Below, piece by piece: positions 15,968-51,575 of a DNA stretch of 64,000 nt (positions within the stretch are counted from its first letter, which is position 1; each line of letters begins with the position of its first letter). The stretch lies in NCBI GenBank assembly GCA_037442635.1, contig JBBIPV010000011.1:11636-75635 (forward strand). The letters are read 5' to 3'. The position numbers were made by a program, and so were the translations under genes. The notes under the pieces are model-generated. The model was not told the origin of the DNA, made no database searches, and saw nothing but the letters and a program-made list of their open reading frames with translations. This stretch comes from Terriglobales bacterium (GTDB lineage Bacteria > Acidobacteriota > Terriglobia > Terriglobales > Acidobacteriaceae).

Positions 15968-16738
15968 ATGTCCTCAGACCTGCAGGGCCGTAACGCTGTC
16001 GTCTTCGGAGTCGCCAACAAGCGCTCGATCGCGTGGTCCATCGCCCAGGGACTGCACGCCGCCGGCATGAAGCTCGCCATCACGTACCAGAACGAGCGCA
16101 TGGAACTGGAAGCGAAGGACCTGATTCTGTCGCTGCCCGGCGCCGAGGCCTACATGTGCGACGTCTCGAAAGACGAAGACATTGACCGCCTCTTCGCGAC
16201 GTTGAAGGAGCGTTACGGGAAGCTGCACGCGCTGGTGCATTCTGTCGCCTACGCGCCCGCGGAAGAGCTGAAGGGAGATTTCGTCAACACCACGCGCGAA
16301 GGCTTTCGCGTCGCTCACGATGTGAGCGTGTATTCGCTGATCGCGGTCTCGCGCGCCGCGGCTCCGCTCATGGAAGACGGCGGCTCGATCATCACCATGA
16401 CGTATTACGGTGCCGAGAAGGTCGTACCCCACTATAACGTCATGGCGGTGGCGAAGGCGGCGCTGGAGTGCACCGTGCGCTATCTCGCTCACGATCTGGG
16501 CAAGAAGAAGATTCGCGTCAACGCGATTTCCGCCGGTCCGATCAAAACCCTTGCCGCACGCGGCATCTCGGGCCTGGGAGACATGCTGAAATCCCACGCC
16601 GAGCGCGCCCCGCTGGGACGAAATGTGGAGGTCGCGGAGGTTGGCTCCACTGGAGTATTTCTCGCTTCCGAAGCAAGCAGCGGAATTACTGGCGAAGTGA
16701 TCTACGTGGACTGCGGGTACAACATCATGGGGTTTTAG
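15968..16738 (+). CDS. fabI: enoyl-[acyl-carrier-protein] reductase (NADH) FabI
   Basis: GVANKRSIAWSIAQGL dinucleotide-binding motif, and SDR-like Y/K catalytic region (YNVMAVAKAALE). An AAGGAG SD lies 7 nt upstream of the ATG at 15968. Confidence 0.9.
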   Translation: MSSDLQGRNAVVFGVANKRSIAWSIAQGLHAAGMKLAITYQNERMELEAKDLILSLPGAEAYMCDVSKDEDIDRLFATLKERYGKLHALVHSVAYAPAEELKGDFVNTTREGFRVAHDVSVYSLIAVSRAAAPLMEDGGSIITMTYYGAEKVVPHYNVMAVAKAALECTVRYLAHDLGKKKIRVNAISAGPIKTLAARGISGLGDMLKSHAERAPLGRNVEVAEVGSTGVFLASEASSGITGEVIYVDCGYNIMGF

Positions 16739-16742
16739 GAAC

Positions 16743-16777
16743 AGTTCTCAGTTCTCAGTTGTGAGTTTTCAGTTTGC
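16743..16777. repeat. heptanucleotide tandem repeat (5 units, AGTTNTC)
   Basis: agttctc agttctc agttgtg agttttc agtttgc, starting 5 nt after the fabI stop. Confidence 0.85.
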
Positions 16778-16782
16778 GGGTG

Positions 16783-16820
16783 CCCCACTTCTCCCCGGTT
16801 TTGGGAGAAGTGGGGGTTTT
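16783..16820 (+). terminator. intrinsic terminator of fabI
   Basis: 13-bp stem ccccacttctccc / gggagaagtgggg with a 7-nt loop, followed by gTTTT. Confidence 0.7.
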
Positions 16821-16838
16821 GACTTACCGCTTTAATAT

Positions 16839-16869
16839 GAGCGGCATCCGCCCCTCCCGCCGCTCTTTT
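16839..16869 (+). terminator. second terminator-like hairpin
   Basis: gagcggc ... gccgctc forms a 7-bp stem with a 13-nt loop, followed by TTTT. Confidence 0.3.
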
Positions 16870-16974
16870 CCACAGCTTTTTTTCTTCCCTGTGACGGATG
16901 AACTTTACTGAGAATTTCACTCTGCCTAATCTGGCAGCGTAGGGCCCGGATGTGGCGCGGCGCCAGTCCTAGGA

Positions 16975-17320
16975 AACTCGCCGCCCCCGCAACCTCCCCA
17001 TGCGAGCGAGGGACAGAGGGACATCCGATGCAGGGCGCAGCAGACAGTCAACTCGAATGGCTCGAGATCTGGCGCCCGTTGTGGGAGTGATCACTCCTAA
17101 CGTTTGAAGCGGCAAGTGAAGTAAGAAGCCAACCGGGAGTAAGAGGAGAGACGAACCAGAAGCTGGGAGCAAGGATAAGTGGTCAAGGACAGAAAGAGGG
17201 AGACAACGATAAGCTAGCCGCGAAGCGGCGAAAGAATAAAGCCCACGGCGCAAGCCGTGGGTAAGCGGACGAGCAGATGGGAACAGCCCCGAAGGGGCGA
17301 AAGAAGCCTGCTTATCAGAC
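16975..17320 (+). ncRNA. candidate structured, purine-rich non-coding RNA of unknown class
   Basis: No ORF on the + strand, with stops in all frames. Nested hairpin at 17033-17077 and hairpin at 17084-17097. The closing stem gataagc (17208-14) / gcttatc (17310-16) encloses three hairpins: 17217-29, 17242-61 (8 bp, GCAA GNRA loop) and 17286-98. The hairpins are separated by A-rich linkers. Confidence 0.3.
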
Positions 17321-17499
17321 CGCAACTACCGCGAGAACCTCATCGCCTGCCCAAACGCCGGCGTTGCAATCGTGCGTCTGCCATGGAATGATGAATCCCA
17401 TGCGGAACCAGCGCCTCGTCTTCGCCTTCTTCGCTGCCGCCATCCTGTTCTCGATGGTGCGCGAATGGACCGCGCCCGCCCGCTGCGCCCGAATCGCAA

Positions 17500-17552
17500 T
17501 AGACCGCACAGCCCCCTTCAGACACGGTCAATGAGCGTAATCGCGATGTTAC
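17500..17552 (+). repeat. copy 1 of a 43-nt exact (53-nt near-exact) repeated element
   Basis: tagaccgcacagcccccttcagacacggtcaatgagcgtaatc is identical at 17500-17542 and 19813-19855. After 3 mismatches, the next 7 nt (atgttac) are also shared. Confidence 0.9.
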
Positions 17553-17591
17553 GCCAGTTAGCAGCCCGGCCATCGAGCAGAAGCACCGGCA

Positions 17592-17827
17592 TCCGTTACT
17601 ACTGGAAATCACATTGTGCCGCACCAGGTTGCTATTGCTGTAAATGTCAGTCCCGTCATTAACGGGCGTGCTGAAAATCTTGTTTTCGATCGAGATGCTA
17701 TTGTTCGAGTTGGCGTACACGCAAGTTCCTACCTCCGACGCGCGGACGTGCTCCCACTGGGTAGGAACTTGCTTGACAATGGCGCTGGGGCCCGAGAAAA
17801 TCGGGCAGTACCGTTCCCCCGCCCCGT
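17592..17827 (-). pseudogene. possible relic of a parallel beta-helix repeat protein gene
   Basis: Minus-strand frame without start context: ...IFSGPSAIVKQ...VYANSNNSISIENKIFSTPVNDGTDIYSNSNLVRHNVISSSNG. This resembles PbH1-type repeats and then degenerates into Arg/Gly-rich nonsense. Confidence 0.2.
17773..17801 (+). promoter_or_regulatory. sigma-70-like promoter candidate for the beta-propeller gene
   Basis: TTGACA (17773-78), 17-nt spacer, GAAAAT (17796-801), about 50 nt upstream of the ATG at 17851. Confidence 0.25.
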
Positions 17828-17850
17828 AAGCTCACCGGAAATGAGGAAGC

Positions 17851-19602
17851 ATGAGAAGACATTACGCCGCTCCCGCGATCTCTCTGCTGCTGGTCCTTTC
17901 CCTAACGGGATTGGCTGCCCAGTCGAGCAATATGCTCACCTGGCATAATGACAACTGGCGTTCCGGGGCCAACACGGCGGAGAAGATTCTGACCACCACG
18001 AATGTCACCAGTTCGTTGTTCGGAAAGATCTGCTCGGCGCCAACGGACGGGGCGGTCAATGCCCAGCCTCTGATCGTTACGGGTGTTCCGTTTACCGTTA
18101 GCGGCGTTTCCACGACGCATGACGTGGCCTACGTCGCCACGGAGAATGACACTCTCTATGCCTTTGACGCCAATAACTGTGCGCTGTTGAATTCGGTGAG
18201 CATGGTGCCCATGGTAAGTGGGTGCAGCGCTGGCGTGACGTGCGAGCAGCCGGTAGATTGCCACTACATAGGTGGAGGCGGATGCAAAACCGTTGCCCCC
18301 ACGGTGGGAATCCTCAGCACGCCGGTAATTGACGCGGTTGCTGGCGCCGGTGGGACAACCGGCACGCTCTACCTGGTCGCAGAAACTCAAGTTGGCGCGG
18401 GTAAGAAGATTTCCACCTGGAAGCACAGAATTCACGCGCTGGACATCACAACCCTGGCCGAGAAAACCGGCTCGCCCGCCGTCATTCAGGGAAGTGCTGG
18501 GACGGTCACCTTTATCTCGCAGAGGCAGATCCAGCGTCCCGGTCTTCTGTTGCTGAAAAATGCTGGCCCCAATGGCGACAGCATGGTGTACGCTGCCTTC
18601 TCCCTGATGGATGGGACGCCGGCAAAGCTTGGACTGAAGCCGCCCGGCTGGATTGTTGGTTATGATGCAACCAATCTCAGCGCGCAGCCTGCTGGTTTGC
18701 CTTACGTCTTCAGCAGCACGCCCAACGGCACTGGGCCTGGTGGTCCAGGAGGAGGCATTTGGCAGGCAGGCGCCGGACTGGCTGCGGGTCTTGGTTCTGC
18801 AACCGACCCGACCACCTACATTTATGTGGGGACGGGCGACGGCACCTGGGATGCTGGCAGCGGCGGCAGTGATTATGCTGACAGTTTCATCAAGCTGACC
18901 CCGGCCCTGCAAGTGGCGGGGTTCTTCACCCGATACAACGAACCGATGTATGCCGCAGCCGACATTGACTTCGGTTCCGGGGGCGTGATGTTGGTGCCCG
19001 ACAAAACCATTCCCAGCCGCCCCTACATTTCCATCAACGCCGGCAAAGACGGAAACGTCTATGTGATCGACCGTGGGGCGCCCGGTGGTTACAACGGGAT
19101 CAGCAATACAAGCGTTGAGACCGTCGCCGGAGCGTATCCCTTTATCAGTACGCCGGCCTTCTGCAACGGATACCTGTATGACGCCGTGCTCGGCGGCGCT
19201 TTAAAGTCGTGGCGCGTAAGTGCGTCCTGCAACCCTGGCCCGGTATGCGCGTCCGGCGTACGCTCTACCAGGGAGAAGTTCGCCTTCGGCACAACCCCAT
19301 CGGTCTCGTCGAACGGAACCGCGGCTGGAACCGGGATCGTGTGGGCGGTTGCGTCGCCGAATCAGGCCACCGGAGGCTCGGCAGCCGTTCTGTATGCCTT
19401 CGACGCCCTCAATCTCACCGAACTCTATGACACGACTCAGTGCGCCACGCAGGACATGCCCGGCCTGGGAGTGAAGTTCACCGTGCCCGCCGTAGTTAAC
19501 GGCAAAGTGTACATCGGCACGCAAGGCGAGATGGATGTGTACGGAGAATTGCCGGCTTCGCGATCGTGTTTGTTCGGTCGCGAACTGGCGAACAGGAACT
19601 AG
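17851..19602 (+). CDS. secreted PQQ-like / beta-propeller repeat protein
   Basis: Signal peptide MRRHYAAPAISLLLVLSLTGLAAQ. Repeated motifs such as VYVATENDTLYAFD, TLYLVAE, YIYVGTGDG and KVYIGTQ are typical of propeller blades. Confidence 0.65.
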   Translation: MRRHYAAPAISLLLVLSLTGLAAQSSNMLTWHNDNWRSGANTAEKILTTTNVTSSLFGKICSAPTDGAVNAQPLIVTGVPFTVSGVSTTHDVAYVATENDTLYAFDANNCALLNSVSMVPMVSGCSAGVTCEQPVDCHYIGGGGCKTVAPTVGILSTPVIDAVAGAGGTTGTLYLVAETQVGAGKKISTWKHRIHALDITTLAEKTGSPAVIQGSAGTVTFISQRQIQRPGLLLLKNAGPNGDSMVYAAFSLMDGTPAKLGLKPPGWIVGYDATNLSAQPAGLPYVFSSTPNGTGPGGPGGGIWQAGAGLAAGLGSATDPTTYIYVGTGDGTWDAGSGGSDYADSFIKLTPALQVAGFFTRYNEPMYAAADIDFGSGGVMLVPDKTIPSRPYISINAGKDGNVYVIDRGAPGGYNGISNTSVETVAGAYPFISTPAFCNGYLYDAVLGGALKSWRVSASCNPGPVCASGVRSTREKFAFGTTPSVSSNGTAAGTGIVWAVASPNQATGGSAAVLYAFDALNLTELYDTTQCATQDMPGLGVKFTVPAVVNGKVYIGTQGEMDVYGELPASRSCLFGRELANRN

Positions 19603-19793: not shown

Positions 19794-19812
19794 GTCGTTC
19801 TCACCTTCGCGC

Positions 19813-19865
19813 TAGACCGCACAGCCCCCTTCAGACACGGTCAATGAGCGTAATCAGTATGTTAC
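19813..19865 (+). repeat. copy 2 of the 43/53-nt repeated element
   Basis: See copy 1. This copy ends 107 nt upstream of the ATG at 19972. Confidence 0.9.
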
Positions 19866-50937: not shown

Positions 50938-51575
50938 GCGTCCCAAGGACGCTCGATAGTAGCCCGGCGTTTCAACGCCGGGTAGGCTGGTGTATGCATG
51001 ATACCGTCCCGTAGGGACGGCTGAAATCGTTCTGGAGCCGCCATGCCGCACACGTACGTTTCGGAACTGATCCATTGTGTCTTTTCCACGAAGGAACGCC
51101 GCAATCTGATTCCGGCAGCTGTGCAATCTGATCTTTGGGCGTTCATTGGAGGCGTAGCTCGCAAGAACGGATTTAGAGCGCTCATCGTAGGTGGCACCGA
51201 GAATCACGTGCATATCCTCTTGTCACTGCCCGCAACTTTGCCGCTCGCCAAAGCGATGCAACTGGTGAAAGGAGCGTCTTCTCACTGGATGAACGAGACG
51301 TTCAAGGGCGAGTTCGCCTGGCAGGAGGGATATGGCGCCTTCAGCTTGGGAGTCTCACAGAAAGCTGACACAATCGCGTATATCCAGAAACAAGGTGAAC
51401 ATCATCGCCAGCGCAATTTTGAGGAAGAGTTCTTGGTGTTCTTGAAGAAAAACGGCGTGGAATATGATCCAACACACGTCTGGGGATAGGTTCAGGCATC
51501 CCTACGGGATGCTCAGAATTGCCGGGCCTGCCCGGCGTTGAAACGCCGGGCTATTTTCGGGCGCCCCGCGCGGGG
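50938..51575 (+). mobile_element. REP-RAYT unit: Y1 transposase gene flanked by inverted REP hairpin pairs
   Basis: Left: GTAG + cccggcgTTTCAAcgccggg (50959-82) and ccgtcccGTAgggacgg (51004-20). Right, in inverted orientation: gcatcccTACgggatgc (51496-512) and cccggcgTTGAAAcgccggg (51531-50). Confidence 0.65.
51043..51489 (+). CDS. IS200/IS605-family Y1 (HUH) transposase, REP-associated (RAYT-like)
   Basis: 148 aa. HUH motif HVHILL and the typical N-terminus HCVFSTKERR. Has a conserved Tyr region. No tnpB partner. Confidence 0.8.
   Translation: MPHTYVSELIHCVFSTKERRNLIPAAVQSDLWAFIGGVARKNGFRALIVGGTENHVHILLSLPATLPLAKAMQLVKGASSHWMNETFKGEFAWQEGYGAFSLGVSQKADTIAYIQKQGEHHRQRNFEEEFLVFLKKNGVEYDPTHVWG

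Follow-up and report, generated by a model that had tools for sequence, protein, structure and literature searches.

A putative structured small RNA followed by a REP-type hairpin repeat downstream of fabI in an uncultured acidobacterium

The window analysed here is a stretch of 64,000 nucleotides from contig JBBIPV010000011.1 of a Terriglobales bacterium (assembly GCA_037442635.1). Its gap after the fabI gene includes a region, positions 16975-17320, that an initial annotation had described as a candidate novel structured RNA with an RNase-P-like order of motifs. The region consists of three separate parts: a structured small RNA, here termed R1, then a tail rich in purines, and finally one unit of a known mobile hairpin repeat. 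R1 appears to be a previously undescribed and strongly conserved small RNA of uncultured peat and soil Acidobacteria, and the repeat belongs to the Acido-Lenti-1 family. That a small-RNA locus is followed here by a mobile hairpin repeat, and that the region is not a single RNA with an RNase-P-like core, is given a probability of roughly 0.75. Structure, distribution and composition, the link of the repeat with transposase genes, and its orientation bias are directly supported.

Structure and distribution of R1

The R1 core is about 165 nt long and has five helices (Table 1). P1 encloses P2 and P3; P4 and then P5 follow. Evidence for this fold comes from comparison of copies. RNAalifold, applied to 22 aligned copies from the genus, gives 41 pairs, and 19 of these show compensatory double changes. 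Among 41 distinct copies, 97.0% of cells are paired, as against 31-48% with slid partners, compensatory changes are present in 22 of 40 base pairs, and the covariation score is 0.263 compared with 0.03-0.09. None of 500 shuffles reached any of the observed pairing or covariation measures. In P1 the pairs change from CG to UA, GC to GU and UA to CG. The inner stem of P4 is found as CUCGA/UCGAG, CCCGA/UCGGG and CCUGG/CCAGG. In P5 the sequence GTGATCAC is invariant in the 22 aligned copies and the outer pairs covary, with many G-U pairs; a divergent R1 subfamily has a U-G wobble in P5 and retains the GAUC loop. G-U pairs exceed A-C pairs in R1 by 97 to 22, and therefore the fold is on the + strand. 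The nested hairpin at 17033-17077 and the second hairpin at 17084-17097 that the initial annotation had pointed out are both present, as helices P4 and P5 (the latter at 17083/4-17097) of this covariation-supported RNA.

Rfam has no match for R1 at E<=10, and none was found for any R1 copy or paralog tested at permissive thresholds. The 5′ third of the region thus appears to represent a real RNA family absent from Rfam (Rfam 15). Of the two origins first proposed, that of an unrelated new RNA holds for 16938-17104, i.e. the 5′ third of the region plus about 40 nt upstream, and fails for the 3′ third. A literature search revealed no paper on small RNAs of Candidatus Sulfotelmatobacter, the genus in which R1 is found.

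A covariance model was built in this analysis from the alignment of the R1 core. There are three R1 copies in the genome of the window, with scores of 173-176 bits. R1 was detected in 46 of the 151 genomes searched of Candidatus Sulfotelmatobacter, at 1-6 copies each. It was found in none of 149 sampled genomes from 141 other genera of the family, where stricter filters were used, and a BLAST search of 24 genomes of a sister family also found none. A collection of genomes from 185,579 species yielded 55 R1 stretches, nearly all labelled Acidobacteriaceae or Candidatus Sulfotelmatobacter, and R1 is present in at least 120 soil and peat metagenome contigs. No viral contigs with R1 were found, and a viral origin was rejected on this basis. 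R1 is therefore of interest as a well-supported structured RNA family that is outside Rfam 15, abundant in peat and soil metagenomes, and limited to one uncultured genus.

R1 copies come after a gene end, and the gene on their other side is usually convergent; the neighbouring genes are unrelated. Three R1 loci, those of fabI, a TonB-like gene and a glyoxalase-like gene, are each occupied in 3-4 species. Within most genomes the paralogs are 57-82% identical. Apart from two divergent copies, each has a closer relative in another genome, at 81-98% identity. In the genome of the window and in one other, the paralogs are 95-100% identical. Old genes that are paralogs and occasionally undergo gene conversion appear to explain this pattern better than an active transposon would. 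R1 would then be a stand-alone member of an old paralogous RNA gene family that is confined to Candidatus Sulfotelmatobacter.

Another explanation has to be considered, in which R1 would be a mobile DNA element, non-autonomous and folded in the single-stranded state, similar to an IS200, IS91 or Helitron end, with a subterminal hairpin and a palindrome marking its end. R1 is multi-copy and, together with the module upstream of it, forms an element of about 240 nt whose boundaries are sharp at both ends when copies are compared. P5 is a few bases from the right boundary and next to a palindromic hexamer. The 95-100% identity of paralogs in two genomes could mean mobility rather than gene conversion. 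In addition, folded DNA tolerates G-T wobbles, and strand-specific wobbles could also arise in a folded single strand of DNA. However, the three loci that are each occupied in 3-4 species, and the old divergent paralogs of most genomes, mostly closer to copies in other genomes, argue against this. At R1 copies neither terminal inverted repeats nor target duplications were seen, nor was a transposase associated with them, and R1 is on none of the viral contigs. A five-helix junction, conserved loops and an upstream module in common with other non-coding units fit a transcribed gene better. A mobile DNA element is considered rather unlikely.

The three-hairpin repeat

The 3′ third of the region, which had been included in the proposed novel RNA, has a significant Rfam match. 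Positions 17216-17261 on the - strand match RF01687, the Acido-Lenti-1 RNA motif, with 51.4 bits (gathering threshold 37) over model positions 1-46 of 46. When copies are aligned with their flanks, a third hairpin is seen about 22 nt from the Rfam core, which brings the unit to about 95 nt, and a profile of such extended units matches 17216-17312. The three-hairpin block on the + strand has a folding energy of -48.1 kcal/mol (z -5.5), and none of 200 shuffles was as stable. The genome contains 42 RF01687 matches, 29 of them above threshold, that are on both strands and often clustered. One repeat unit, on contig C12 of this genome (C12:52151-52220), has a 24-nt insertion within the loop of the long hairpin.

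The initial annotation viewed this part as a multi-stem junction closed by a 7-bp inverted repeat, GATAAGC/GCTTATC. The three hairpins and the inverted repeat do exist. The closing repeat has no counterpart in nine other copies of the subfamily, whose flanks give chance matches of 3-6 nt, and GATAAGC/GCTTATC is therefore a chance feature of this copy; the fold of the junction is not conserved. No target duplication was found around nine other subfamily copies.

The stems of the repeat are almost purely Watson-Crick and show no wobble bias, with 3 G-T and 2 A-C pairs in the long stem. The loops are asymmetric with respect to strand. In the long hairpin, the strand that Rfam does not annotate forms a GNRA loop in 24 of 33 genomic copies and the Rfam strand in none; the two short hairpins have GNA triloops opposite the Rfam strand in 20 and 23 of 32 copies, compared with 0-1 on the Rfam strand. 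A reading of UNCG tetraloops on the Rfam strand was a misreading, as the loops are 3 nt long. In the window unit the GNRA and GNA loops are on the + strand, and the earlier remark that its GCAA loop is of the GNRA type on the + strand alone proves to apply family-wide. The gene upstream of the repeat is on the loop strand for 30 of 36 genomic repeats, and by 22 to 2 where the gene end is within 200 nt, in a test that is weakened by its rough gene calls (open reading frame plus GC3 filter). The loop asymmetry and the sense of the upstream gene therefore place the units in 3′ regions in sense orientation. This suggests that the biologically relevant strand of Acido-Lenti-1 is opposite to the annotated one which, if true, bears on curation of the family.

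Nine regions of the genome match PF01797 (Y1_Tnp), and the four best are each located between Acido-Lenti-1 units. At three of these four loci, on contigs C19, C11 (the one in the window) and C6, inverted three-hairpin units stand on both sides of the gene. The locus on C13 is irregular and has an extra unit: directly downstream of the Y1 gene is a unit in the 'wrong' orientation, with a further unit after it (C13:116130-117108, locus L054). This suggests a nested or extra insertion. The four Y1 proteins are about 149 amino acids long, score 81-95 bits against PF01797, match NF033573 (named IS200/IS605 transposase in NCBIfam), and carry HVH and the Y---Q--HH motif. The latter is the signature of TnpAY1 subclass 1.2 (Quentin et al., 2018; PMC6006769). 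Motif and protein length fit this subclass, and assignment to a classical RAYT (TnpAREP, class 2) was rejected.

There are four stem subfamilies of the repeat, and each is shared by the units that flank one Y1 gene and by dispersed intergenic units. The subfamily of the window unit is that of the units around the Y1 gene at C13:116576-117022. The subfamily of the in-window transposase has a 5′ foot of GTAG or ATAG, and that of the window unit has GCAG or AAAG. Since it flanks four IS200-like Y1 genes, Acido-Lenti-1 in this genome appears to behave as a REP-type element. The genome thus offers evidence that an 'orphan sRNA' of Rfam is a repeat of an IS200-like Y1 transposase.

The relationship between R1 and the repeat can be examined where both are present. 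A repeat unit is found downstream of R1 in only 11 of 66 unique copies, at a distance of 44-143 nt, and in all 11 the GNRA/GNA strand is the R1 strand, in agreement with the orientation of the repeats behind genes across the genome. The order R1, tail, repeat at the fabI locus is common to two other species, and the window unit is therefore old. With a repeat behind 11 of 66 R1 copies and about 40 copies in the genome without R1, the unit is a dispersed repeat and not an RNA domain. Most simply, the repeat would have come to lie, or been kept, where the R1 transcription unit has its 3′ end, just as it does behind protein genes. Downstream of R1 it would most plausibly act as a 3′ hairpin block, perhaps a stabiliser or a terminator.

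The order of parts and their common strand, which loop chemistry indicates for all three and which the 11 downstream repeats share, might instead reflect one new RNA of about 350-400 nt, with R1, tail and three-hairpin junction as its domains. A domain would not be expected behind so few R1 copies and at so variable a distance, nor at some 40 sites without R1 or on both sides of transposase genes. The closing helix is not conserved and the tail has no conserved sequence. A single large RNA is therefore unlikely, and a small-RNA locus followed by a separate repeat is the reading followed below.

Upstream module, palindromes and purine-rich tail

Transcription of R1, its self-association, and the roles of the tail and of the repeat are what we infer from these comparisons. 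The R1 core is preceded by a module of short conserved boxes. Conservation of the two core boxes, TTTTCCACA and TGTGAC, is 95% or higher across 124 unique R1 copies. In this genome the module also stands ahead of four further non-coding units that differ in sequence, and it is found in congeners without R1 as well. By-eye comparisons with sigma-70, sigma-54 and ECF promoters gave no convincing fit. The module may be a shared promoter or regulator site.

The four further module-led units are at C1:248757(+), C5:200889(+), C6:93194(-) and C9:76672(+) (loci L123-L126). They have a different sequence of about 300 nt with repeated CAATATTTTGCC/CAAGATTTTGCC motifs and a run of 8-9 A residues at the end, and are without an Rfam match. 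In congeners without R1, similar module-led units are located upstream of a 249-amino-acid protein of unknown family.

Two palindromes are found in R1. The apical loop of P2 has TCCTAGGA in most copies; in others ATCCTAGGAT, TCCCGGGA/GTCCCGGGAC, TCCGGA or TCTAGA is found in the same place. Directly after P5, 45 of 65 genome copies have a perfect 6-nt palindrome at one and the same offset, and 61 of 65 have a 4-nt core. Variants of this hexamer are AACGTT, AAGCTT, TCTAGA, ATCGAT, ACGCGT and CAACGTTG. Of 62 independent metagenome copies, 31 have a perfect palindrome here and 43 are self-complementary with G-U pairs allowed; at other offsets of the same copies the numbers are at most 1 and at most 7, respectively. 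The palindromes cannot fold on themselves, and no other part of R1 covaries with either. The idea that the hexamer pairs with sequence 5′ of P5 and so lengthens this helix was rejected: it works for AACGTT and ATCGAT only, not for AAGCTT and TCTAGA, and RNAalifold adds one pair only. A pseudoknot between the hexamer and the P2 loop was also rejected, as the two do not covary together.

Self-complementarity is kept while the sequence changes, G-U variants included, a pattern that intermolecular RNA pairing would leave. Both palindromes would be single-stranded and exposed, and R1 molecules may pair with each other by kissing or dimer contacts. With the palindromes conserved as palindromes, RNA-RNA self-association is a concrete prediction and one that is cheap to test. 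A more tentative proposal is that R1 is a self-assembling small RNA. The palindromes, and perhaps the GAUC loop of P5, might drive formation of homodimers or chains that display multiple A/G-rich tails as a multivalent platform for Hfq or the ribosome. This is a speculative and rather doubtful extension of the pairing prediction. If true, it would represent a compact, genus-specific RNA quaternary structure with a regulatory output.

The purine tract that follows the hexamer had been estimated at about 80% purine. At 17105-17207 it measures 77.7% (A 0.41, G 0.37), and the motifs noted earlier are present: GGGAG three times, AAGGA twice and TAAG three times. The folding z-score of 0.08 shows the tract to be unstructured. 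In 60 genome copies, positions +21 to +80 after P5 (the profile is given also as 80 nt from +21) are 69-74% purine, with A at 0.39-0.44, C at 0.15-0.18 and T at 0.11-0.13, and the excess falls to background by about +160. The same profile is found in 62 metagenome copies (68-75% purine), and likewise in divergent copies. The tails cannot be aligned with each other. The tail is thus a compositional feature that follows R1 copies family-wide, and is not conserved in sequence. It is unusual for a family-wide tail to be defined by composition rather than by sequence.

An (ARN)n periodicity was rejected, as 3-nt autocorrelation is absent. Upstream composition is flat, and a pyrimidine-rich mirror tract there, as a pairing partner of the tail, was rejected for this reason. 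Hfq is encoded in the genome, at C5:204350-204529. CsrA (PF02599) was not found in this 99.5%-complete genome and GGA in the tail is not enriched over dinucleotide shuffles; a CsrA sponge of the CsrB/RsmZ type was rejected on these grounds. The 80-100 nt of A/G-rich sequence may be a read-through 3′ extension that functions as a protein-binding platform, or may be a spacer.

Some R1 tails are visibly heptamer arrays. In one genome, four identical R1 copies are situated between facing heptamer arrays, of the GCTCATC type upstream and the GATGAGC type downstream. Several further tails of R1 copies have at their end a GACAGCCGCC-N-GGCTGTC hairpin, which resembles another dispersed repeat family.

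As a structured element with Shine-Dalgarno-like, purine-rich sequence behind it, R1 might also regulate in cis, as a leader or riboswitch, a gene further downstream or a small open reading frame within the tail. Genes downstream of R1 are unrelated and mostly on the opposite strand, and no conserved gene on the same strand directly follows. Every + strand frame of the tail has stops. In the window the next + strand gene is 750 nt away and has its own promoter-like site. A leader is very unlikely; with R1 copies located between unrelated, mostly convergent genes, R1 RNAs are therefore regarded as stand-alone.

Several points weigh against the interpretation of R1 as a stand-alone small RNA with a functional tail. 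The folding energy of the R1 core (z -0.05) shows it to be no more stable than shuffles; single-sequence stability is unremarkable, and support for R1 therefore rests on covariation. Related genomes are not independent samples, and the genus is uncultured and represented solely by metagenome-assembled genomes. A simple scan upstream of R1 found no sigma-70 consensus and no recognisable sigma-70 promoter. The 3′ end of R1 is undefined, with a run of at least four T residues after the hexamer in only 57 of 133 copies; a short form that ends there and a read-through form with the tail are therefore both possible. The tail has no k-mer enrichment beyond composition and no motif, and the tails may be decayed heptamer arrays.

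The remaining features of the gap are listed in Table 1. The upstream gene is fabI (PF13561, 303 bits). No credible gene was found in the gap that follows, and its short open reading frames have no Pfam match. As first stated, the + strand has no credible open reading frame, and stops interrupt all three frames of 16975-17320. A 118-amino-acid open reading frame on the minus strand (16969-17325) was rejected: it has no Pfam match, and its low-complexity translation runs across three unrelated elements. A search of the gap sequence against its own genome shows it to be a mosaic of unrelated repeats. The fabI terminator hairpin and its T-run also belong to a dispersed repeat, of which the genome has more than 20 similar copies. 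Copies of the 59-nt repeat at 17494-17552 and 19807-19865 are 92% identical, and are found upstream of two consecutive genes for secreted proteins. The 583-amino-acid secreted-looking protein encoded after the gap (17851-19602) has no Pfam match at E<=0.01.

Table 1. Positions of features in the gap after fabI and at the in-window transposase locus
Feature	Positions	Strand	Remarks
Terminator hairpin family	16776-16826		Own-genome search
fabI terminator hairpin	16783-16815	+	13-bp stem, then GTTTTGACTT
Element of ~240 nt (upstream module plus R1)	16866-17105		Two further copies in the genome
Upstream module TTTTCCACA-N16-TGTGAC-N5-ACCTTTAC	16866-16916	+	Candidate promoter or regulator site
R1 core, helices P1-P5, ~165 nt	16938-17104	+	Covariance model 173.4 bits at 16938-17101
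P1, long-range helix	16947-16953 with 17021-17027	+	Encloses P2 and P3
Self-complementary octamer TCCTAGGA in P2 apical loop	16967-16974	+	Variants stay palindromic
P4, nested hairpin	17033-17077	+	Inner stem covaries
P5, hairpin with GAUC loop	17083-17097	+	Outer pairs covary
Palindrome AACGTT directly 3′ of P5, then TTT	17099-17104	+	Position-fixed
Purine-rich, A-rich, unstructured tail	17105-17212	+	77.7% purine
7-bp inverted repeat GATAAGC/GCTTATC	17208-17214 / 17310-17316	+	Local to this copy
Three-hairpin Acido-Lenti-1 / REP-type unit, ~95 nt	17213-17312		Hairpins 17217-17229, 17242-17261, 17286-17298; many genome copies
59-nt repeat	17494-17552		Own-genome search
IS200-like Y1 (HUH) transposase gene	51043-51489	+	PF01797 83 bits, NF033573 57 bits
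Inverted Acido-Lenti-1 units around the Y1 gene	50939-50982, 51531-51570	-, +	35.3 and 29.3 bits

The motif order read by eye, which is all that favours a divergent or decayed RNase P RNA and which no tool result supports, is outweighed by the absence of any RF00010 or RF00011 match in 16700-17900 even at E<=10 (and of any at gathering level in the whole window) and by a normal, intact rnpB of 179 bits on another contig of the same genome (C10:8-444), so that an rnpB-like origin can be dismissed.

Comparison with known systems

Bacterial RNase P RNA (RF00010/RF00011) and the R1 region have short purine-rich motifs in common, and nothing more. The CR-I/CR-V motif that forms P4 (GAGGAAAGUCC ...) is absent from the region, and the covariation-supported R1 fold has no such helix and no P4-type pseudoknot. 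Unlike rnpB, which is single, R1 is present in three copies here, is restricted to one genus, and is missing from about two thirds of the congeners.

A-rich Hfq sponges of the CrcZ type and GGA sponges such as CsrB and RsmZ are small RNAs that sequester proteins by repeated single-stranded motifs. R1 may be likened to these in being apparently stand-alone and multi-copy, with a conserved upstream module and a long unstructured A-rich stretch, in a genome that encodes Hfq. However, the R1 tail has no repeated motif or GGA enrichment, CsrA was not found, and the structured R1 core has no counterpart in the sponges. The likeness is an analogy only.

Kissing loops that initiate dimerisation of retroviral genomes are examples of self-associating RNAs. 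Among bacterial RNAs, OLE, ROOL and GOLLD are homo-oligomeric (Nature 2025, PMC12286853). R1 resembles both in having exposed self-complementary sequences, with palindromy conserved over sequence. It differs in being far smaller (∼165 nt) and in having no sequence or model similarity, and its oligomerisation is a prediction only.

The genomic arrangement of the repeat resembles that of REP elements and their RAYT transposases. Four Y1 genes are found between hairpin units, inverted at three of the loci, and each has its own subfamily that is also dispersed between genes. The units differ in that they consist of three hairpins and not of one REP palindrome, and a GTAG foot is found only in some subfamilies. 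Subclass 1.2 of TnpAY1 is described as generally low-copy and without terminal structures (Quentin et al., 2018; PMC6006769); in the present genome, by contrast, the ends have structure and are amplified. The name 'TIRYT' has been given to a group of tyrosine transposases of Acidobacteria whose inverted ends are repeated (Di Nocera et al., 2013; PMC3733652).

Acido-Lenti-1 was described as an RNA motif (Weinberg et al., 2010; PMC2864571). The window unit agrees with it in having a hairpin of 8 bp with a 4-nt loop, a 12-nt linker and a hairpin of 5 bp with a 3-nt loop, and in its acidobacterial host. The related contigs are titled Acidobacteriaceae or Candidatus Sulfotelmatobacter, which is within the Acido-Lenti-1 range of Acidobacteria or Lentisphaerae. 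The window unit differs in its third hairpin and greater length, its stems are almost purely Watson-Crick and without wobble bias, and both the stable loops and the gene sense favour the strand that is not annotated. The units in this genome flank transposase genes, which would be the behaviour of a DNA repeat rather than that of a small RNA gene.

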